From Alphaproteobacteria bacterium (lineage in GTDB: Bacteria > Pseudomonadota > Alphaproteobacteria > Rs-D84): a stretch of DNA of 64,000 nucleotides. The stretch spans positions 97,069-161,068 of the forward strand of contig SUUN01000001.1 in assembly GCA_015062495.1 (NCBI GenBank). The letters run 5' to 3'. The position numbers and the translations under genes were made by a program. Of this stretch, positions 479-60,368 are shown piece after piece. The notes below the pieces were generated by a model. That model saw nothing but the letters and a program-made list of their open reading frames with translations, was not told the DNA's origin and ran no database searches. The first letter of the stretch is position 1. Each line of letters begins with the position of its first letter.

Positions 479-708
479 TGGATTTTTGTCATTTTTTGGT
501 GTAGTATATACTTTGACATGGCGATTGCTGTGTTGGGCGTCGAAACCCGTTTATGCTCAGTGCCTGTGAAGGTAGAAAATATCTCCAACCAATATGGTTG
601 GAGGGCGGTGAATATATTGAATAAGCCCGCTATTTTCTGAGCATTATAGTTTCGAACCTCCAACCACCCGCTTTGTCAGGTGGTTTTTTGTTTAAAAAAG
701 GATAAAAA

Positions 709-2708: not shown

Positions 2709-2975
2709 TTGCAGTATAAAACTTTTATTGGTACAATGACTGTTGTCAGCATGTGTTTTATGCTGGCGGGGTGTGGAAACCCTTTGTTGGCGTCGGAATA
2801 TTTGTTAATGGCGCAGATTGCGCTGTTTTTTATTGCGGCGGAAGTTACTCCTGACTGTTGGTCAGGAGGGTTGCGATATATATAAATAAGCACACAATTC
2901 CAACAATTGTTTCCAACCTCCTGGCCACCTTAGTTTTATGGTGGTTTTTTGAAATTGTACAAAAGGAGGAAGTCG
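2709..2975 (+). promoter_or_regulatory. Leader copy 0: sigma70 promoter (TTGCAG-N17-TACAAT, 2709-2737) plus a structured 5' leader related to the leaders at 10863 and 21274
   Basis: Shares CGGGGTGTG.AAACCC hairpin, mid-leader terminator (GCGCA-gat-TGCGC + T6), CTCCTGAC-loop-GTCAGGAG hairpin, conserved GGTTGCGATATATATAAATAAGCACACAATTC block, CAACCTCCTG anti-pairing segment and a second terminator (CCACC..GGTGG T6) before the RBS. Confidence 0.6.
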
Positions 2976-3430
2976 TGAAACAAAAACTAATATGTTTGAC
3001 AGTTGTGTTGTTGATGGTGTCTGATGCGGCGGCTGGTGTATATGGATGTGTTGCAGCCAGTGAACCGATACCAGCGCAATCAAGCAGATGTTCGGGAATG
3101 GACTGGAACTTGCTGAGCAGCAATTATCCATATTGGCAATATGGTGATGTTGTTGCTGGGTTTGCCAAGTGTGTTGGTGGTAGTAGTGTGACATGTACGT
3201 GTCGACAAATCTGGCCATATTTTAATGCAATGGGGGAATGGACTGCTAATGCCAGCAGTATAAACAGTCAATGTTCTGCGTCAACAACATCACTATCTGA
3301 TTGTTATACAAATTGTGCGCGTGCGTGCTTGGCGTCAATTGCGGATAATTATATTACCTGGGGTTATAATGATACTGGCAATCGATATGAATTACAAAAT
3401 ATATTGTCTTATTCCGTGTTTTATAAATAG
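2976..3430 (+). CDS. Small Cys-rich secreted protein (signal peptide), hypothetical
   Basis: GTG start 6 nt after AAGGAGG; N-terminal signal peptide MKQKLICLTVVLLMVSDAAAG; 12 Cys in the mature region; preceded by leader copy 0. Confidence 0.55.
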
Positions 3431-3447
3431 TAAATGGAGTTAATATA

Positions 3448-3846
3448 ATGAAAAAGTTGTTCGTTTTTTTTATGTTTTTGATGTCATGTGGAAATGCATT
3501 TTCGGTTGCGTGTTTGCAATATGATATTAGTGGTTGTTCCCAGTATTCGTCATCAAGTTATACAGACAGTACAGGTGTTACCGCAATGTATAAGTGCGGT
3601 GGTGGTGGCAATCGCGTTGATGTCGTTGGCATGTGTGGAACAGAATTGTCAGGTGGTGACATTGTTTACAACACAACAAATCTGAATGATAACAGCAGGT
3701 GTTTTTGTCGTATAACTTACCCTTTCTTGTCTGATTGGGTCGTTGCAGGCGGTGGGTGTTATAATCCATCCGCAGGAACAATAGGATGTGTTAGCGCTTG
3801 TGAAGCGTTGTTAAATTCTGGTACTAACTGGATATCGTATAAATAA
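3448..3846 (+). CDS. Small Cys-rich secreted protein, hypothetical
   Basis: 132 aa, signal peptide MKKLFVFFMFLMSCGNAFS, about 11 Cys; tandem with neighbours (17-nt gaps). Confidence 0.55.
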   Translation: MKKLFVFFMFLMSCGNAFSVACLQYDISGCSQYSSSSYTDSTGVTAMYKCGGGGNRVDVVGMCGTELSGGDIVYNTTNLNDNSRCFCRITYPFLSDWVVAGGGCYNPSAGTIGCVSACEALLNSGTNWISYK

Positions 3847-3856
3847 GGAGATTCTT

Positions 3857-4147
3857 ATGAAAAAAGTATTGCTTTTATGTTTTACTGTCTGTATGTTTGG
3901 CGCAAACGCAGCGGATTTACCAGCTTGCAGAGGGACGTTACAATTATGGCCAAATGTCGGGTATTATGAGTCATCTTGCCCCGCGGGAACGATTGAATTG
4001 GTTGTGGCGTCTTTGCCTTGTGAATATGCAAGCAGTGCTCAGACATGCGGCATGTTCGTTAATGATAATGGCGAAACAGATGTTTATATCGGAGAGGATG
4101 CTTCTGGCGTATTCGAAATATCTGGTTTTTGTGGACTGTCGCAGTAG
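3857..4147 (+). CDS. Small Cys-rich secreted protein, hypothetical
   Basis: 96 aa, AAGGAG RBS, signal peptide MKKVLLLCFTVCMFGANA, 7 Cys. Confidence 0.5.
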   Translation: MKKVLLLCFTVCMFGANAADLPACRGTLQLWPNVGYYESSCPAGTIELVVASLPCEYASSAQTCGMFVNDNGETDVYIGEDASGVFEISGFCGLSQ

Positions 4148-10772: not shown

Positions 10773-10862
10773 CATCCCCCGTTTGGGGGATTTTTTCAAA
10801 GTGCAAATAGCAAAGCGCAAAGAGCAATTAATATTTAGATAAATAAAAGTTTATCTAAGTAA

Positions 10863-11142
10863 TTGAATTTATAACAACTATGGCGTATAATGAATGTGTC
10901 GTCGGGTGTTCCGATGACGGGGTGTGAGAACCCGTTCCTTTGCGTCTGAGAAATGTTATGGACGCGCCAAAGATGGCGTGTTTTTTGTCAGATGAAAAAT
11001 AAAAAAACTCCTGATACCCCATTGGGTCAGGAGGGTTGCGATATATATAAATAAGCACACAATTCAAAGGATTGTTCTCAACCTCCTGACCGTCAAAAAA
11101 ATGACGGTTTTTGTTTAACAAAAAAATCAGGAGATTGAACAA
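10863..11142 (+). promoter_or_regulatory. Leader copy 1: promoter TTGAAT-N17-TATAAT (10863-10891) plus a ~250-nt structured leader with two terminators and mutually exclusive pairings
   Basis: Hairpin ACGGG-GTGTGAGAA-CCCGT; terminator CGCGCC-aaagat-GGCGTG+T6 (10962-10986); hairpin CTCCTGAT..GTCAGGAG (11009-11033); GGTCAGGAGGGTTG can pair with CAACCTCCTGACC (11079-11091), which overlaps terminator 2 (GACCGTCA..TGACGGTTTTT, 11088-11112); SD CAGGAGAT then ATG. Confidence 0.65.
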
Positions 11143-11670
11143 ATGAGAAATAAACATATTTTTATTTGTGCCCTGTGTGCGACGTTTGTTGCGCCCGTGG
11201 CACATGGGGCAAGTTGTTTTTATGATGTTGATTGCGAAAGTACAAGTCCATCTGGGGGAATTACGATTGGGCTTACTTGTCCCACGATTACGGTTGGACT
11301 GAAAACGTATGTGGGTATCATGAAGCATTCGTTCACGCACACATGCAACTTTGTGTCTGGGTCGTTGTATGGTTCGTGTGGTCAATTAATTAATGCGGAT
11401 GTCCGTTATGCGTGCTGTCCAGGGTATTATGGCGAATGTAGCGATAATACCGATATTACGACGTGCAGTTGTTCACGATGTCCGCAGTTTAGCGATGCGT
11501 CTGGAACGGTTTATGGAACGACGGAGGGACCGGTGGCAGGAAACGCAAGCAGTTATTCTGGCAATGCCCCGTCCAAGACAGATTGTTATGTTCCAGCCGA
11601 CAAGGGATACGAGGATTCAGATGGGACAGGAACATTTGAATTTACGTCAAAATGTTATTATTCCAATTAA
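11143..11670 (+). CDS. Cys-rich secreted protein, paralog A (C-terminal ...TCSCSRCP...CY...GTGTFEFTSKCYYSN module)
   Basis: Signal peptide MRNKHIFICALCATFVAPVAHG; 16 Cys; C-terminal module shared with the 21552 and 29339 proteins. Confidence 0.6.
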   Translation: MRNKHIFICALCATFVAPVAHGASCFYDVDCESTSPSGGITIGLTCPTITVGLKTYVGIMKHSFTHTCNFVSGSLYGSCGQLINADVRYACCPGYYGECSDNTDITTCSCSRCPQFSDASGTVYGTTEGPVAGNASSYSGNAPSKTDCYVPADKGYEDSDGTGTFEFTSKCYYSN

Positions 11671-11697
11671 AAAATCCCCCGAATGGGGGATTTTTTA
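11671..11697 (+). terminator. Rho-independent terminator
   Basis: AAAATCCCCC-gaat-GGGGGATTTTTT. Confidence 0.7.
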
Positions 11698-11731
11698 GTG
11701 GTTAGTGGTAAGTATCTTACAAGGAGGAAAT

Positions 11732-21178: not shown

Positions 21179-21273
21179 AAAAATCCCGTGACCGCGGGAT
21201 TTTTTTTGAGATATGAGACATGAAACATGAGATAGGAATACTTCACTAAATAAACTTTTATTTATTTAAGTAT

Positions 21274-21551
21274 TTGAATTTGTGGCAACTATGGCGTATA
21301 ATTGTTGTGTCGTCGGGTGTTCCGGTGATGGGGTGTCGAAACCCGTTCCTTTGCGTCTGAGAAAAGAGTTTGAATGCGCCGATGCTGGGCGTGTTTTATC
21401 AGATGAAAAATAACAAACTCCTGATGCCAATTGGGTCAGGAGGGTTGCGATATATATAAATAAGCACACAATTCAAAGGATTGTTTCGAACCTCCTGACC
21501 GTCAAATGATTGGCGGTTTTTTGTTTAACAAAAAATCAGGAGATAGAACAA
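21274..21551 (+). promoter_or_regulatory. Leader copy 2: promoter TTGAAT-N17-TATAAT (21274-21302) plus a structured leader homologous to 10863-11142
   Basis: Same architecture as copy 1 with compensatory substitutions: ATGGG..CCCGT, GCGCC..GGCGT+T-run, CTCCTGAT..GTCAGGAG, conserved AT-rich block, CGAACCTCCTGACC, second hairpin plus T6, SD CAGGAGAT. Confidence 0.65.
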
Positions 21552-22229
21552 ATGAAAAAAAATTTACTGTTTGTGGTTGGGGCTGTGTGCTCGGTGGTGG
21601 CGTGTCCAGCAATGGGGGCATACAACTGTTATCAGATAGCGCAATCGTCAGAATATTTATGCGACGGTGCTTTGTCACAGTATCAGATAACGGGGGTGAG
21701 GCCAAGTTTGGATATGTTGGGTGGCGGTATGACGATGCCAGGTTGTGCCAGCAGTGATTATTTTGAATGTTGGGCATATACATCTGGCAGTAATACGGTT
21801 TATGTTCCGTGGTATGACTGTGATAGTTGTATGGCTGGATATACCAGAAAGTCTACAACCGCGCAAATGGGCGGATGTGGAAATGCCACATATTATTATT
21901 GCGAAGAAAATTGTACCGGGTGCAGTAATTGTACGTCTGATACGACGTGGTCCACAACGGGTACGGACGGATATGAAAAAAAGGTCACACGCACGTGCAG
22001 TTGTAACACGTGTATGATCAGCACTTCATATCGTTGCGCCGCCGGATATTATGGCAGTTCAACAAACGGTACATCGGGGTGTACGCGGTGTCCGTCGTCG
22101 GGTGGGGTCTATGGCACAAGTGCCGCAGGCAGTACCGCGATAACATCGTGTTATATTCCGTCTGGAACGTCGATGACAGATAGTGTAGGAACGTATGAAT
22201 ATACGTCAAATTGTTATTATAGCGAATAA
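21552..22229 (+). CDS. Cys-rich secreted protein, paralog B (C-terminal ...CSCNTC...RCP...CY...GTYEYTSNCYYSE)
   Basis: Signal peptide MKKNLLFVVGAVCSVVACPAMG; about 24 Cys; C-terminal module shared with 11143 and 29339. Confidence 0.6.
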   Translation: MKKNLLFVVGAVCSVVACPAMGAYNCYQIAQSSEYLCDGALSQYQITGVRPSLDMLGGGMTMPGCASSDYFECWAYTSGSNTVYVPWYDCDSCMAGYTRKSTTAQMGGCGNATYYYCEENCTGCSNCTSDTTWSTTGTDGYEKKVTRTCSCNTCMISTSYRCAAGYYGSSTNGTSGCTRCPSSGGVYGTSAAGSTAITSCYIPSGTSMTDSVGTYEYTSNCYYSE

Positions 22230-22258
22230 AAAATCCCCGTTTCCGGGGATTTTTATTG
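22229..22258. terminator. Bidirectional terminator
   Basis: AAAAATCCCCG-tttc-CGGGGATTTTTAT between convergent genes. Confidence 0.7.
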
Positions 22259-22259
22259 T

Positions 22260-23372
22260 TTAAAATGCGTATTTGATATTCATGCCACCAATCCATCCGT
22301 CGCGGGCGCCGTCGCGGCGACCAAAGTGCGCAGATATGTTAAAGTGGTTTACATATTTTTCCAGCGATATGCCATATTCGCGATAGTTGTCGGTTTCAAG
22401 TGCGTCGGCGACAATATCATTGATGTGTGTGTCGCCACCGTTGTCAAATATCATTACATATTTGGCGTTCAGTGCGCCGAACCATCCGTTTGCGATGTGC
22501 TTAATCGCGCGCAGGGTGGGGGTGACTTCGAACATGCTGAATAATGCGTCGTTCTTTAAAATATCGCCGGATGCAGATGTGTAATCTTCGCCACGAATCC
22601 ATGTGTATCCCAGGTGTATGCCGGGCTGTAATGTAAATGTGCCGTCCAACGCAAAATCGTATGTGATTTCTGTTGCAGCGCCAACCCAGAAATTTGAATG
22701 TTCGTCGGTGCCGAATATTGTGTCGGTGGTGTTATTTAATACGCCACCGTCAACTGTTGCAAACAGTCCCCAATTGCCGAATACGTTGCCGTTATAGATG
22801 CCAAAGTGACCGCCCTGGGAATCGATTTGGATTTCGTTGTTTTGTTGGTCGCCGTCGATGAATCCGGCGTACATTCCCCATTTAGATACGCCACCCGCGA
22901 ATTCAGACAGGCCGCCTGCGATGCCGAACATAAATGTGTTTATATTGGAATCTAAGTGCGCGAAATTGTCAAATACAGCGTCGTCGCCCATATGTTGCCA
23001 GTTCAACCAAATGCTGTTCAGTGCGGCATCGGCATTGTAAATGTCGCCGCCACTGCGACCGGCACTGCCGTCGTCGTTATATTCGCCGTACATCGGTGCG
23101 GTGCCGTACATTGGGGCACGGCCGTATGTGGTGGCAGGATTTTCACCGCGTTGGGCGGAAATTGATTTGGCGCGTTGTTTCTGTGCGCCCATGTTACCGC
23201 GCATAGATCCTGCAAATGAAGAAATTGCAGTTTGTGTAATTGTGTGTTGAATTGATGCGATGTTGTGTGCCGTAATTGCGTTTGCATAGGCGTGTGTGTT
23301 TGTCGCGGCGTGTGCACCAGATGTGCCCAACAATGACAATAAAGAAATTGTAAAAAGGGTTGTGTGTTTCAT
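22260..23372 (-). CDS. Outer-membrane beta-barrel protein (autotransporter-like / OMP; C-terminal ...NIKYAF)
   Basis: Signal peptide MKHTTLFTISLLSLLGTSGAHA; alternating amphipathic strands and a terminal aromatic residue typical of BAM substrates. Confidence 0.5.
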   Translation of the reverse strand: MKHTTLFTISLLSLLGTSGAHAATNTHAYANAITAHNIASIQHTITQTAISSFAGSMRGNMGAQKQRAKSISAQRGENPATTYGRAPMYGTAPMYGEYNDDGSAGRSGGDIYNADAALNSIWLNWQHMGDDAVFDNFAHLDSNINTFMFGIAGGLSEFAGGVSKWGMYAGFIDGDQQNNEIQIDSQGGHFGIYNGNVFGNWGLFATVDGGVLNNTTDTIFGTDEHSNFWVGAATEITYDFALDGTFTLQPGIHLGYTWIRGEDYTSASGDILKNDALFSMFEVTPTLRAIKHIANGWFGALNAKYVMIFDNGGDTHINDIVADALETDNYREYGISLEKYVNHFNISAHFGRRDGARDGWIGGMNIKYAF

Positions 23373-44343: not shown

Positions 44344-45033
44344 ATGTGGCGTAGTGTTTTTGCGATTTTGATTCTGGCCGGGTGTGTTGGTGATTATGCC
44401 GAATACCCCGGCCAGTCTTATTTAGGGGCACGATATGAAAATTCCCCGCTGGGTGAATGTGCCCCACCCGATCCAGATCCTGTGATACGGTTTGATGCGT
44501 TTGATTGTACTACGTTTGTGGAAACTGTGTTGGCCGGTGGGTGCGAGTGTTGCCTGAATCAAATTCGATACAAAGATGGGGAAATTGGATTTCTGACGCG
44601 TAATCATTTTATTGAATCTGATTGGCTGAATGCTAATTCAGATTTGGTGCGAAATGTAAGTGGTGAATATGCGCCGACCGCCATTCGACGTGTTGTGATT
44701 GATAAAGCAAATTGGTTTCGGGCTGTGCATGGGCTAAATATTGATGTCGCGCCGGTTGTGGTTGATTTGGAGTATGTGCCATATCAATATGTGGGCGATA
44801 TAAAAATACAAGAACCTGTGATTGTGCTGTTTGTTACTGACAACCCAAAATTTCGTGATACAATAGGTACTGATTTGGCCGTTGTGCATATGGGTTTTTG
44901 GTTGCCAAATGGAAAACTGCGCCATGCGTCAAGTAATCAGGGCAAAGTTGTGGATGTTGATATGGCAGAATATGTCGCAGGGCGAATGAAGAATAAACAA
45001 AATCTGGGGATTGCATTGGTTGAAATAAAATGA
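44344..45033 (+). CDS. DUF1460-like lipoprotein (NlpC/P60-superfamily fold suspected)
   Basis: Lipobox ILAGC; FDCTTFVETVLA resembles the DUF1460 conserved Cys motif. Confidence 0.45.
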   Translation: MWRSVFAILILAGCVGDYAEYPGQSYLGARYENSPLGECAPPDPDPVIRFDAFDCTTFVETVLAGGCECCLNQIRYKDGEIGFLTRNHFIESDWLNANSDLVRNVSGEYAPTAIRRVVIDKANWFRAVHGLNIDVAPVVVDLEYVPYQYVGDIKIQEPVIVLFVTDNPKFRDTIGTDLAVVHMGFWLPNGKLRHASSNQGKVVDVDMAEYVAGRMKNKQNLGIALVEIK

Positions 45034-56516: not shown

Positions 56517-58418
56517 TTATTTCTTTTCAGAAAAGTCCGCGTCGACGGTGCCGTCGTCGTTTTTCTTTTCTGTGTCGGCGGATGCGCCCTGCTCGGCCTG
56601 TTGGGCTTTGTAGACCGCTTCGCCCAGTTTCATGGCGCGTTCGGTTAACGCTTCGGTTTTTGATTTCAAACTGTCAACCGTTGCGTCAGCCTTGGCCAAT
56701 TCGTCGGCTAATTCTTTTTTCGCATCTTCGATTGCTTTTTTATCATCTTCGCTGATTTTATCACCGTGTTCTTTCAGTGATTTTTCAATGCTAAAGATAG
56801 CGGTTTCGGCGGTATTCTTGGCCTCGGCCAGTTCGCGTTTTGCCTTGTCCGCTTCGGCGTTGGCAGCGGCTTCGTCAACCATGCGTTTGATTTCGTCTTC
56901 GGACAGACCGCCGTCGGATTTGATTGAAATCGCCTGTTCTTTGCCGGTGCCTTTGTCCTTGGCCGATACGTGTACGATGCCGTTTGCGTCGATATCAAAT
57001 GACACTTCGATTTGTGGCATACCACGTGGGGCCGGTGCGATACCTTCTAGATTAAATTGGCCCAGTAATTTGTTGTCCGCCGCCATGTCGCGTTCGCCCT
57101 GGAATACACGGATGGTTACGGCCGACTGGTTGTCTTCGGCGGTGCTGAATACCTGGGATTTCTTGGTTGGGATTGTTGTGTTGCGGTCAATCAGACGTGT
57201 GAACACGCCACCCAATGTTTCAATGCCCAATGATAATGGCGTTACGTCCAGCAACAGAACGTCTTTGACATCGCCCTTTAATACGCCACCCTGGATGGCT
57301 GCGCCCATACCGACAACTTCGTCTGGGTTCACGCCCTTGTGTGGTTCGCGACCAAAGAATTCTTTGACCGTTTCGGCAACCTTGGGCATGCGGGTTTGAC
57401 CACCGACCAAGATAACTTCGTTAATCTGTGATTTTTCCAGACCTGCGTCCTTTAATGCCTTTTTGCAAGGTTCAATTGTGCGTTCAATCAAGTCCGCAAC
57501 CAACGATTCCAATTTCGCACGTGTCAGGGTTGTGTTAAAGTGCTTTGGCCCCGTCGCGTCCGCCGTCAAGAACGGCAGGTTGATGTCTGTGGATGTTTTA
57601 GACGACAATTCGATTTTTGCCTTTTCAGCGGCTTCTTTTAAACGTTGCAATGCCAGTTTGTCGCCCGACAGGTCAATGCCAGTCTGGGATTTAAATTCAG
57701 CAATCAAGTGTTCCAAAATACGCGCGTCAAAGTCTGAGCCACCCAGGGTCGTGTCGCCGTTGGTTGATTTTACTTCGAATACGCCATCGATAATTTCCAA
57801 AATAGATACGTCAAATGTACCACCACCCAGGTCATATACTGCGATGATGCCATCTTTGCCTTTGTCCAGGCCGTATGCCAATGCCGCGGCCGTTGGTTCG
57901 TTAACAATACGCAATACGTTCAGACCCGCAATGCGACCGGCGTCTTTGGTTGCCTGGCGCTGGGAATCGTTAAAGTATGCAGGAACGGTAATAACCGCGT
58001 CGGTGACCGGTTCACCCAGATAGGATTCGGCGTCTTTTTTCAATTTTGCCAAAATCATTGCAGAAATCTGGGATGGGGCATATTTCTTGCCGTCCATTTC
58101 AACCCATGCGTCGCCATTGTCGCCCGCAACGATTTTATATGGAACGCGTGCCGCAATTTCACGGACAGCTGGGCTGTCAAAGCGCAGACCCATTAAACGT
58201 TTGATTTCATAGATTGTGTTTTCGGGGTTGGTGACCGCCTGATTCTTGGCTGTGATGCCGACCAACTGTTCCCCGTTTGATGTCAATGCAACAACGGATG
58301 GGGTTGTGCGCTGACCTTCGGAATTTTCAATGATTTTTGGGTCAGAACCGTCCATGAACGCCATGGCCGAATTTGTTGTACCCAAGTCAATACCAATTAC
58401 TTTTCCCATGTTTTTCAC
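56517..58418 (-). CDS. dnaK: Molecular chaperone DnaK (Hsp70)
   Basis: [17 protein letters not shown], substrate-binding and lid domains, EEVD-less C-terminus typical of bacteria; 633 aa. Confidence 0.97.
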
Positions 58419-58765
58419 TCCTGTTAAAAAATTTGCTTACCCACCATATAGTTATGCAAAATTTGATTTCAAGTGGCAATAGACAGTTTTTCTTAAAATA
58501 AAACATAATGTTGTATTTTTAGGATTTTGTGGTATAATTGGTGTGAACTCAATGGGATTGGGTTCGGGGTTGTAGAAAGCCCTTATCGTGTACGGGCGAC
58601 ATTCAGTGTCGCTCAATTTTGCCCCCGACATGTGGTCGGGGTGTCGTTGGCTATACAACAGGCATTCGCCAAAGGCCAGCGAAATCATCACACGATATGA
58701 TTTTCTAACACCCCGATCGTCAATTTCATTTGACGATTATTTTTTATGCAAGAAAGGGGTAAGAA

Positions 58766-59689
58766 ATGTCAGATGCAGAATTGGATGCGTTAAATGCTGC
58801 TATTGCTGGAATAGCAGAAAGAATGGCTGATGGGACCGTTGGAAAAACAGTAACGAAAGATAAAGAAGGAAATATTATAACCATCATGGAAGAGAGTATG
58901 GGTCGCCGTATTATTACCCAGTATGATAAAGAAGGGCGTATAACAGTTTCGCAAATCTTGAAGGATAATGATGTTGTGAATTTCAAGGACGGATATATTT
59001 CCAGTATTATAAAGTATGAAGAAGATAGTTATAGTTTTGCCTATGGGGCGTTGGGAATGAATGAAATTCAGTATGGTGAAAATGGGCGTATGTTATCGTC
59101 TGTACACAAGGTAAGAATACGAGATAAATCTAGTTTTCGAAACGAGCCTGGTAGTGGCAAGTGGATGACGACGGACAAGACGACATACTATGACAATGGT
59201 CATATTGCGATACATACCACGTATAAACAAAGAACACAGAATACGGGACGTGGTAATGCGGACTCTTGGGACAATAGCATTCATGGTACAGACAGGGACG
59301 AAACAGATGTGGCAGAATCTTTTGTGTCATCAATTGAACAAATGGACGAAAGTGGCAAGTTGTTGCTGTCGGTGCAATTGCATGAATTTGACGAAGTTAA
59401 CTATCACCCCACAGGGCGCGTTGCGTCAATTCTGCGCAAGGATAAAGACAATAATCCAAAAACCATGACGTCGTATGATGATGTAGGACGAATTTTGAAT
59501 CAAATGGTTTATCAAGACGGCAAAGTGATTTCGTCGGTAGACTATGTGGATGGCAAGCCTGTGTCCAATGTCCAGCAAGGTAATGAAGAATATCAAAATA
59601 TTTTTGACCGGGCGGGAGAACGCGTTAAGAAACATGCCAAGGATAAAAAGGCGGTTGTGAGCCCTGCCCCGATTAAAGAACATGAATAA
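58766..59689 (+). CDS. Repeat-containing hypothetical protein (YD/MORN/YwqK-like G-rich beta-hairpin repeats)
   Basis: Recurrent Y..D.EGR / Y.NG...... / YDDVGR motifs; 307 aa. Confidence 0.45.
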   Translation: MSDAELDALNAAIAGIAERMADGTVGKTVTKDKEGNIITIMEESMGRRIITQYDKEGRITVSQILKDNDVVNFKDGYISSIIKYEEDSYSFAYGALGMNEIQYGENGRMLSSVHKVRIRDKSSFRNEPGSGKWMTTDKTTYYDNGHIAIHTTYKQRTQNTGRGNADSWDNSIHGTDRDETDVAESFVSSIEQMDESGKLLLSVQLHEFDEVNYHPTGRVASILRKDKDNNPKTMTSYDDVGRILNQMVYQDGKVISSVDYVDGKPVSNVQQGNEEYQNIFDRAGERVKKHAKDKKAVVSPAPIKEHE

Positions 59690-59708: not shown

Positions 59709-60368
59709 ATGGCAAAAATGACAGTAAATGAAGCTGCACAAATACTGGGGATTCCATTAAATGCAACCCGGGCCCAGTTAAAAAAAGCATATCGCGCGCT
59801 ATGCATGAAATATCATCCGGACAAAAATCCAGGTGATAAACATGCCGAAGAAATGTTCAAAAAAGTTGCTGAGGCTAATGAGGTGTTTCTAAAACATCTG
59901 GAACGTGGTGGAAACAGCAATCAAGGCAATGGTCAAAATCGTGGCGGGCAATCCAGCAATACTGGCACACGTCCAGGGGCGGATGGTGGAGCGCGTCCCG
60001 GGAATAATAATGGCGGTGGCGCGGGGCGTACGGGTTCGACCGGTACGGGGGCAAATGTAAATATAGATTCGATTTTGAAAACATTTTGGCAAAAGTATCA
60101 ACAGGCCAAGCGTGACCATGAAAACTTTATAAATGGTGAATTGGCCACGACGCGTCAAAAGGTAAAGGATACAGAAGCCAAGTTAGTACAGGCAGATAAC
60201 CTGGACAAGAAATTGGGCTATGTGCAAACGTTGCAACGTTTGCTGATGCAGGAAAAAATGCAGGTGGCGCGAGCTGTGATGCTGGCCAAAATGGCGAATA
60301 TGTATCTGAAACAGTATGAAGATGCCACCGCCAGATTTAATCGTAAAAATCAACAAGGGGGCAGATGA
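59709..60368 (+). CDS. J-domain (DnaJ-like) protein
   Basis: N-terminal J domain [20 protein letters not shown]; Gly-rich linker; C-terminal coiled coil. Confidence 0.8.

Follow-up and report, generated by a model that had tools for sequence, protein, structure and literature searches.

A Candidate Doubly Pseudoknotted, Riboswitch-type Attenuator Leader ahead of a Three-gene Operon for Cys-rich Secreted Proteins in an Rs-D84 Alphaproteobacterium

Introduction

The closest described counterparts of the RNA leader considered here are the terminating pseudoknotted riboswitches of the ZTP, c-di-GMP-II, preQ1-III, and cobalamin classes, in which a promoter-proximal leader with a conserved core and heavy covariation is tied together by pseudoknots between distant segments, and a closing helix competes with an alternative hairpin for terminator and Shine-Dalgarno (SD) outputs. 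The leader lies at 2744–2975 of a 64,000-nucleotide stretch of DNA from an Alphaproteobacteria bacterium of the Rs-D84 lineage (GenBank assembly GCA_015062495.1, contig SUUN01000001.1, positions 97,069–161,068; the window), upstream of three small genes for Cys-rich secreted proteins. It shares these properties, with a helix termed B:C in the place of the closing helix and one termed A:B in that of the alternative hairpin. Some second-messenger riboswitches occur in many copies per genome, as this leader does. It differs from the four classes in that two pseudoknots converge on one small hairpin, P5, in that a terminator-like hairpin, T1, is embedded in helix P3, and in its downstream (cargo) genes, which encode exported uncharacterized proteins rather than enzymes or transporters.

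Other systems share part of this logic. In the trp and pheA attenuators, segments pair as 1:2, 2:3, and 3:4, corresponding here to A:B, B:C, and C with the terminator T2, and the 2:3 antiterminator overlaps the terminator; the present leader differs in having no conserved leader peptide, and a pseudoknotted domain of ~120 nucleotides (nt) is the likely sensor instead of the ribosome. T-box leaders are likewise large and multicopy, set a gene-specific variable pairing in a conserved scaffold, and choose between terminator and antiterminator. The variable pairings of our leader, the pseudoknots PK-A and PK-B, are however intramolecular rather than codon-anticodon, and its cargo is not related to aminoacyl-tRNA; it contains no Stem I, specifier, or T-box sequence, gave no hit to RF00230, and has a perfect, bulge-free B:C helix. 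Nor does it resemble the RNA thermometers (ROSE, fourU), as it has no Rfam hit and is a doubly pseudoknotted, terminator-bearing leader of ~230 nt. The processive antitermination RNAs, HK022 put and Bacillus EAR (the latter of which precedes cell-surface polysaccharide genes), are also structured RNAs that act in cis from the leader of an operon and are followed by terminators. In contrast to these, our leader has no Rfam match, carries its terminators inside or directly after the element, and has alternative helices that compete with T2, an arrangement that points to local attenuation and not to modification of RNA polymerase.

An earlier note on this DNA, made from the sequence alone (the original prediction), had proposed a promoter-proximal leader with terminators and alternative hairpins ahead of Cys-rich secreted-protein genes. 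The comparative analysis presented here supports that proposal, revises its view of which part of the leader is functional, and suggests that the leader is an attenuator of riboswitch type.

Results

Fold of the leader

The family alignment comprised 102 leaders, among them the leader of the three-gene operon (copy 0) and two others from the window (copies 1 and 2); pair counts below refer to this alignment and to a structure that we specified, unless stated otherwise. The conserved architecture extends from the −10 box to T2, beyond the core alone. With this structure, 95.8% of pairing cells held a pair, compared with 83.3% in column shuffles, which ignore phylogeny and of which 0 of 500 reached the real value, and with 32–52% when partners were slid by one to three columns. 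A scripted pairing check found all structural elements of copy 0 present and perfectly paired (Table 1), and the folding z-score of its RNA is −4.6 relative to shuffled sequences.

Two pseudoknots are supported by this alignment. PK-A joins the loop of P2 to the strand just 3′ of P5: five variable loop nucleotides (GGGGUGU-N5-CCC) and the U that precedes them form the reverse complement of the six nucleotides after P5. All 102 sequences pair at all six positions, with 38–55 double substitutions at each of four positions and at most four pair types per position. PK-B, between the P2–P3 linker and the P5 loop, was recovered both by a mutual-information scan and by RNAalifold, its column pair 68:275 being AU in 49 leaders, UA in 20, GC in 16, and CG in 15. 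Because the MAFFT alignment is imperfect at the P3/T1 region and in the P5 loop, PK-B was re-tested free of the alignment. At least six contiguous complementary nucleotides were found in cis in 96 of 101 leaders, with 59 distinct loop sequences, whereas mismatched controls, in which linker and loop came from different copies, had a mean of 2.8 and reached six in 0.8% of cases. The pseudoknot sequences differ among the paralogous copies of a single genome.

The helices that carry these pseudoknots behave in the same manner. The second pair of P2 is GC in 71 leaders, GU in 22, and AU in 9, and is unpaired in none; P3, with the pattern GCGUC...GAYGA around a variable insert, covaries at seven of seven pairs with 93% of cells paired. 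P2 and P5 are linked by a junction pair, Y5:R, which is UA in 95 leaders and CG in 7. A longer, continuous helix at this point (GUGU:ACAC plus N4:N4) was rejected on strand topology, and the junction pair alone was kept. The sequence of P5 is changed in two diverged sequence types of the family (types II and III, below) with its pairing retained. P4.1 has only 3 base pairs (bp) in most leaders of the commonest type, type I, but 4–6 covarying bp in diverged copies (for example UUGCG:CGCAA, GCUGU:ACAGC, AUACC:GGUAU, and GUCGU:GCGAC). Its loop is the AT-rich block that the original prediction had called invariant, a description that does not extend to the family, since the block is swapped or enlarged in other members. 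Four leaders (L001, L041, L074 on the minus strand, and L089) have an optional hairpin of variable sequence in the middle of this loop (alignment A3 columns 225–255), so that part of the loop appears to tolerate a peripheral stem.

The 67-nt core of copy 0 recurs in the window at 11025–11091 and 21434–21500 with 91–92% identity, and it had been thought that function resides in this core and not in its flanks and that the 5′ half of copy 0 has diverged. The sequence of the 5′ half does differ, but P1, P2, and P3 are preserved by compensatory changes; since the helices covary, the differences are best read as covariation and not as decay. The core cannot be separated from its flanks in this way: the flanking helices covary, and PK-A and PK-B join two 5′ segments to the 3′ core with copy-specific sequences, so that the whole stretch of ~205 nt is read as one fold.

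Alternative helices and terminators

Three elements downstream of P3, termed A, B, and C, are mutually complementary, and this complementarity is maintained in three sequence types (CUCCUGA, CUCCAACC, and CCCCGAC). In type II, which includes the window copy at 506–704, A, B, and C read CUCCAACC, GGUUGGAG, and CUCCAACC; in type III, which includes the window copy at 58532–58757, they read CCCCGA, UCGGGG, and CCCCGA, with CCCGACC and GGUCGGG also pairing. Single-base variants of all three occur together in leaders L081 and L004 (CUCCUGC/GCAGGAG/CUCCUGC). Copies found with the covariance model, which are free of the bias of the pattern used for the census, preserve both A:B and B:C with other sequences, and the preservation of both across differing sequences indicates that selection maintains two mutually exclusive helices. 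In a nested energy model the mean difference between the A:B and B:C states is −0.7 ± 3.8 kcal/mol, A:B being favored in 46 of the 102 leaders; the value for copy 0 itself was disregarded, as its sequence had ended at the U run in the T2 loop, and the family means are unaffected in kind.

Both terminator candidates, T1 and T2, fit the definition of an intrinsic terminator, a GC-rich stem-loop followed directly by a U run. A T1-like element is found in 79 of the 102 leaders, and T2 is present in every family member seen; it was missed by the terminator scan because its 10-nt loop exceeds the limit of that scan. In all three types the final 1–3 nt of C form part of the T2 stem. C is also complementary to the SD of copy 0 (CCUCCU:AGGAGG, 6 of 6 pairs), as is A, and the motif CAGGAG occurs in 35% of the SD regions of cargo genes compared with 5.6% of those of other genes in the same loci.

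The operon and its cargo

Transcription of copy 0 is predicted to start at ~2744, at helix P1. Its −10 box falls in register with the TATAAT found in ~100 homologous leaders, and its spacing from P1 is constant; the −35 box agrees with TTGACA at three of six positions, which is why it was not listed by the consensus promoter scan. The TspO gene upstream ends in a terminator at 2685–2703, which should shield the leader from upstream transcription. Every element that had been listed at 2709–2975, that is the promoter, the hairpins, T1, T2, the AT-rich block, and the SD, was confirmed by direct reading and scripted pairing.

The three consecutive small genes for Cys-rich secreted proteins are likewise present; the first had been placed at 2976, but its start codon is the GTG at 2975. 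As had been proposed, all three are very probably co-transcribed from the leader promoter, because the intergenic gaps are only 17 nt (genes 1 and 2) and 10 nt (genes 2 and 3) and consensus and terminator scans found no usable internal promoter or terminator within the tandem. Two promoter-like sites were considered and rejected, TTTATA-N18-TATAAT at 3420–3449, which runs into the start codon of gene 2 and would cost that gene its SD, and a second at 3916–3944, which lies inside gene 3. Promoter-like sites number 8 in total, a chance level given the shuffle expectation of 5.5 ± 2.5. Tandem cargo of two to four genes follows 36 of the 85 leaders with cargo readable to its end (49 single genes, 30 pairs, 5 triples, and 1 quadruple); outside these 85 stand 3 leaders with no called open reading frame (ORF) and 19 with cargo that runs off the fetched sequence. 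An ORF with a signal sequence starts 43–139 nt past C in 103 of 107 leaders.

No Pfam family was found at the curated cutoff in any of the five Cys-rich proteins of the window; the sole match listed, Herpeto_peptide for gene 2 (E = 0.33, 11.4 bits), lies below its cutoff of 22 and was set aside. Gene 2 is a weak relative (E = 4e-6) of a cargo family of ~145 residues, and gene 3 is weakly similar (E = 0.008) to the ~90-residue partner of a recurrent two-gene module. In this module, seen behind L025, L035, L036, L037, L043, L044, L056, and other leaders, a ~145-residue Cys protein is followed after 5–15 nt by a ~90-residue Cys protein. From the two similarities the tandem of copy 0 looks like this module with its first gene duplicated, and the operon thus appears to be a diverged and expanded version of it.

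Judged by their predicted sequences, the cargo proteins of the family are mostly exported or surface proteins. They include a Cys-rich family of ~200 residues ending in ...GTYEYTSNCYYTN (copies 1 and 2), the ~145-residue family with 7–10 Cys, a ~68-residue family, proteins of 400–480 residues with a Listeria-Bacteroides repeat, and outer-membrane β-barrels. Behind leaders of types II and III are found an RgpF-like enzyme, small Xre-helix-turn-helix (HTH) proteins, a mini-protein with two transmembrane (TM) segments together with an Mrr-like nuclease, and an operon of MORN-like and DnaJ-domain proteins beside dnaK. The cargo evolves far faster than the leader: gene 2 has only two homologues in the database, and the leader is recognizable across the order. 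A terminator, AAAAATCCCC-loop-GGGGATTTTT, follows the cargo of copies 1 (11671–11720) and 2 (22230–22260); it closes many neighboring genes in the loci as well, and so looks like a genome-wide terminator consensus.

Distribution of the leader family

A covariance model built from the 102 leaders found five copies in the window. Copies 0–2 are part of the model's own alignment and their scores are therefore partly circular; copies 3 and 4 are not in it and constitute the independent evidence for the family. A further hit at 44733–44915 (16 bits) was rejected as it lies inside a coding ORF. In the fetched loci the same model found ~16 more diverged copies. Copy 3 adjoins the preceding tRNA gene (362–435), has its P3 capped by a GNRA loop, and is followed by a 72-residue, two-TM, Cys-rich mini-protein (709–927) and a protein with an Mrr_cat restriction-endonuclease domain (928–2076). 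Copy 4, with an enlarged P4.1 domain that bears a UAUACAACAGG motif, is divergent from dnaK (56517–58418, minus strand); its cargo operon begins at 58766 and encodes a 307-residue MORN/RHS-like protein, a DnaJ-domain protein (59709–60368), and a 451-residue uncharacterized protein.

Homologues of the cargo protein of copy 2 were confined, in a homologue search, to metagenome-assembled genomes (MAGs) of uncultured gut Alphaproteobacteria and Rickettsiales, and their loci bear the same leader, in one instance as a divergent pair. A census with a degenerate core pattern, at one genome per GTDB species, gave at least 120 loci. Among the matches listed were at least ~100 true leaders, from at least 27 MAGs of gut Alphaproteobacteria, and the remaining ones lay in GC-rich coding sequence of unrelated phyla. 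The MAGs are labeled Candidatus Enterousia or "Alphaproteobacteria bacterium" and derive from the guts of deer, sheep, pig, rabbit, horse, human, and other animals, with up to at least 14 copies in a single genome. Enterousia belongs to the order Rs-D84, the genomes of which are mostly below 1 Mb and lack the tricarboxylic acid cycle and respiration (PMC12306168). Several typical leaders with Cys-rich cargo genes were also seen on contigs of a MAG labeled Muribaculaceae (L086 and L111, contigs CAZJGX01...), which are probably misbinned alphaproteobacterial contigs. The family is absent from viral contigs, where the one pattern match was coding and without a covariance-model hit, and was discarded as a chance match. 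In L004 (2440–3000) two leaders stand back to back on opposite strands with divergent Cys-rich genes and promoters ~90 nt apart.

Short palindromes lie just 5′ of the −35 boxes of copy 1 (10837–10856, AGATAAA-N6-TTTATCT) and copy 2 (21248–21267, AAATAAA-N6-TTTATTT). Their sole counterpart at copy 0 is a half-site-like AAAACTTTTATT between the −35 and −10 boxes, and a related sequence, TTTTATTTAKY, occurs at a fixed distance in 23 of the 102 leaders. These palindromes may be an operator or an UP element, that is, an additional control at the DNA level.

No Rfam 15 family (4227 models) reached its gathering threshold on any of the five copies, and the whole window gave three tRNAs only. The best sub-threshold hit, sRNA-Xcc1 (RF02221) on the core of copy 0 (2860–2934), scored 30.2 bits against a gathering score of 53 and was not obtained with copies 1 and 2, in which that core is present too; being below threshold and unreproduced, it was rejected as a chance resemblance. 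Other sub-threshold hits on type I leaders (DUF3800-I, isrK, and others) were rejected as they were not reproduced between copies, and Phe_leader, at 19.8 bits against a gathering score of 55, is noise. A search of the literature on Enterousia, Rs-D84, and riboswitch candidates found no description of this leader RNA. It is thus an orphan doubly pseudoknotted leader-switch family, outside every described class that could be tested here.

Table 1. Features of the copy 0 locus and leader copies in the window
Feature	Position	Strand	Description
Promoter of copy 0	2709–2737	+	−35 TTGCAG 2709–2714; 17-nt spacer; −10 TACAAT 2732–2737; read from the sequence
P1 hairpin	2745–2752 / 2760–2767	+	8/8 pairs; in the family, 7/8 pairs covary and 99% of cells are paired
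P2 hairpin (GGGGTGTGGAAACCC)	2768–2783	+	GGGG 2768–2771 / CCCU 2780–2783; loop holds Y5 (2772) and the 5′ strand of PK-A
PK-A	2774–2779 / 2910–2915	+	UGGAAA / UUUCCA; 6/6 pairs in copy 0
PK-B	2786–2790 / 2900–2904	+	GUUGG (P2–P3 linker) / CCAAC (P5 loop); 5/5 pairs in copy 0
P3 long-range helix	2791–2795 / 2836–2840	+	encloses T1; 5/5 pairs in copy 0
T1 terminator-like hairpin	2807–2831	+	2807–2815 / 2819–2827, GCGCA-GAT-TGCGC, then U run; terminator scan; at P3 tip
A:B hairpin (CTCCTGAC...GTCAGGAG)	2848–2855 / 2861–2868	+	8/8 pairs
Element A (CUCCUGAC)	2848–2855	+	8/8 pairs with 2861–2868; proposed anti-antiterminator
Element B (GGUCAGGAGG)	2860–2869	+	SD-like; 10/10 pairs with 2917–2926; partner is A or C
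P4.1 helix	2872–2874 / 2890–2892 (2872–2892)	+	closes 15-nt conserved loop GAUAUAUAUAAAUAA; also predicted by RNAalifold
AT-rich block (GATATATATAAATAA)	2875–2889	+	read from the sequence
Junction purine R and P5	2894; 2895–2899 / 2905–2909	+	R pairs with Y5 (2772); P5 loop is the 3′ strand of PK-B
CAACCTCCTG	2914–2923	+	read from the sequence
Element C (CCUCCUGGCC)	2917–2926	+	anti-SD-like; 10/10 pairs with B, 6/6 with SD; last CC is the T2 base
T2 intrinsic terminator	2925–2950	+	CCACC 2925–2929 / GGUGG 2940–2944; U6 2945–2950; scripted pairing
SD and start codon	2963–2969; 2975–2977	+	AAGGAGG; GTG; read from the sequence
Gene 1	2975–3430	+	GTG start; 151 residues; signal peptide; 10 Cys; no Pfam hit
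Gene 2	3448–3846	+	132 residues; signal or lipoprotein-like N terminus; 10 Cys
Gene 3	3857–4147	+	96 residues; signal peptide; 7 Cys
Leader copy 0	2731–2965	+	type I; 160.9 bits, E = 3e-45
Leader copy 1	10885–11128	+	type I; 189.7 bits; cargo gene 11143–11670
Leader copy 2	21296–21537	+	type I; 193.2 bits; cargo gene 21552–22229
Leader copy 3	506–704	+	type II; 90.9 bits, E = 6e-25; A CUCCAACC, B GGUUGGAGG, C CCUCCAACC
Leader copy 4	58532–58757	+	type III; 39.4 bits, E = 4e-10; A CCCCGAC, B GGUCGGGGUGU, C ACACCCCGAUC

Discussion

With moderate confidence we propose that 2744–2975 is the 5′ leader of the three-gene operon and acts as a doubly pseudoknotted, bistable attenuator of riboswitch type. 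The firm part of this proposal, as far as comparison of sequences can establish it, consists of the fold, in which PK-A and PK-B are included, of the way in which A, B, and C are mutually complementary, and of the bases that C shares with T2. Beyond this we infer which state is ON and which OFF, that there is an effector and of what kind it is, and what T1 does. Two of the three parts of a generic riboswitch definition are found here, an aptamer-like domain in which P1, P2, P3, P4.1, P5, PK-A, and PK-B all covary, and an expression platform in which A:B and B:C exclude each other with similar energies and C is placed at both T2 and the SD.

In the mechanism that we envisage, the 5′ domain, composed of P1, P2, the P2–P3 linker, and P3, would clamp P5 of the 3′ domain through PK-A and PK-B. 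In the OFF state A:B would form first during transcription and leave C free, the terminal CC of C would complete the T2 stem, and transcription would stop at ~2950; in any read-through RNA the free C could also mask the SD. In the ON state a stabilized pseudoknotted core would favor B:C, PK-A ending one nucleotide before C, and B:C would then withhold the base of T2 and free the SD, so that polymerase could enter 2975–4147 and the genes could be translated. So complex a fold makes a bound small molecule or ion the most likely stabilizer, and a protein or RNA factor is possible. T1, at the tip of P3, may serve as a pause site or as a first termination checkpoint. The logic would be that of a four-segment attenuator in which a doubly pseudoknotted sensor of ~120 nt replaces the translating ribosome.

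Several observations weigh against this proposal. The transcript start, termination at T1 and T2, and switching itself are all predictions read from sequence. The cargo, with its exported proteins, outer-membrane barrels, RgpF enzyme, Xre-HTH proteins, and DnaJ operon, suggests no metabolite. An overlap of 1–3 nt between B:C and T2 is a weak coupling for an antiterminator; A and C are both complementary to the SD, so that an anti-SD is free in either state; PK-A and PK-B could form in both states; and T1, being inside the fold, would terminate transcription ahead of the synthesis of the 3′ domain. Within type I the three elements A, B, and C are nearly invariant, and for B and C this is due in part to the search pattern, which demanded both. 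Finally, RNAalifold offers an alternative, nested pairing of the GGGG of P2 with the CCUC of C, continuous with PK-A (alignment A3 columns 43–46 and 292–295; 2768–2771 and 2917–2920 in copy 0), by which P2 GGGG could be a third alternative partner for C.

The strongest competing explanation keeps the fold and the switch and replaces the small ligand with a protein or a trans-acting RNA, the leader serving as operator for a regulator that controls surface proteins throughout a regulon; candidates would be an RNA-binding antiterminator, Hfq or a CsrA-like protein, a NusG paralogue, or a small RNA (sRNA) that pairs with A. The functionally mixed cargo without a metabolic theme and the many copies per genome are in accord with it, and proteins could bind at the long, strictly conserved single strands (GAAUAUAUUGAAUAA, GAYGAAAA) and at the U runs that adjoin hairpins. 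These genomes, on the other hand, are smaller than 1 Mb and have few regulators (PMC12306168). Moreover, no candidate regulator gene is consistently linked to the leader in the loci inspected, and so complex a core with two pseudoknots would be expected in a ligand-binding aptamer or a ribozyme more often than in a protein operator. We regard a protein or RNA effector as unlikely, though likelier than the explanations that follow.

A non-switching role is less probable still. Stable 5′ structures shield mRNAs such as ompA, and envelope proteins dominate the cargo, so the leader might be a constitutive 5′ untranslated region (a stabilizer, a processing site, or a translation enhancer) with T1 and T2 providing fixed insulation or attenuation. 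Such a role leaves unexplained why two exclusive helices, A:B and B:C, are retained through three sequence types, why the two states are nearly equal in energy, and why no member lacks a strong terminator between the fold and the SD. We also find it very improbable that the leaders are a multicopy sRNA family of short trans-acting RNAs ending at T1 (~90 nt) or T2 (~205 nt), with downstream expression a by-product of read-through. The two good terminators within the leader and its SD-like and anti-SD-like elements would fit, and riboswitch-derived sRNAs exist; each copy, however, has a fixed position and orientation ahead of an SD and start codon, and each copy has pseudoknot sequences of its own that pair in cis, which suits a cis element better than a shared trans seed.

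A, B, C, and T2 follow the same 1:2, 2:3, 3:4 scheme as trp, and the alternative hairpins and intrinsic terminator of a trp-type leader-peptide attenuator, in which a ribosome over A would free B for C, are all found here, along with an AUG conserved before GGGG in most copies and, in copy 0, a 68-codon ORF at 2679–2885. No conserved leader peptide, however, was found by a scan for ORFs over A across the 102 leaders: the ORFs vary from 6 to 82 codons, only 9 of them are provided with an SD, and such an ORF is missing from 24 of the 102 leaders. In addition, the change of GGGGUGU to GAGGCGU preserves the RNA pairing and not a peptide, and insertions and deletions in P1 and P3 come in lengths not divisible by three, so that we give this mechanism almost no credence. 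Equally little can be said for the view that the 67-nt core, 91–92% identical between copies with flanks far less alike, alone matters amid drifting duplicated DNA, or that the element is a remnant of a repeat or mobile element without RNA function, as the covariation counts already contradict it, the alignment-free test of PK-B argues against an alignment artefact, the flank differences are compensatory and the flanks pair with the core copy-specifically, and the element is conserved in many species before unrelated genes and absent from viral contigs.

If the attenuator proposed here does respond to a small ligand, it may represent a new riboswitch class with a double-pseudoknot clamp as its aptamer. 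We hold this extension tentatively, with rather less than even confidence: it would sense a cellular or host-derived signal, which might be a second messenger or an ion, and with 10 to at least 14 copies per genome of <1 Mb it would act as a master switch for the exported and surface repertoire of the probably partner-dependent Rs-D84 gut Alphaproteobacteria.

For RNA biology, the interest of this orphan family lies in the large size of the structured RNA and in its unusually clean covariation, with two pseudoknots and a three-way switch that covaries in three "dialects." These properties recommend it for ligand discovery and for work on its structure, and the copy-private pseudoknot sequences ease the design of compensatory mutations. 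Candidatus Enterousia and other Rs-D84 members, gut bacteria that are uncultured, carry a large number of unexplained membrane and secreted proteins. One RNA device ahead of ~1–2% of genes, a rough estimate, would be the main known regulatory circuit of these bacteria, and, as most of the genes under its control encode fast-evolving surface or secreted proteins, it would offer a handle on their interaction with host or partner cells.

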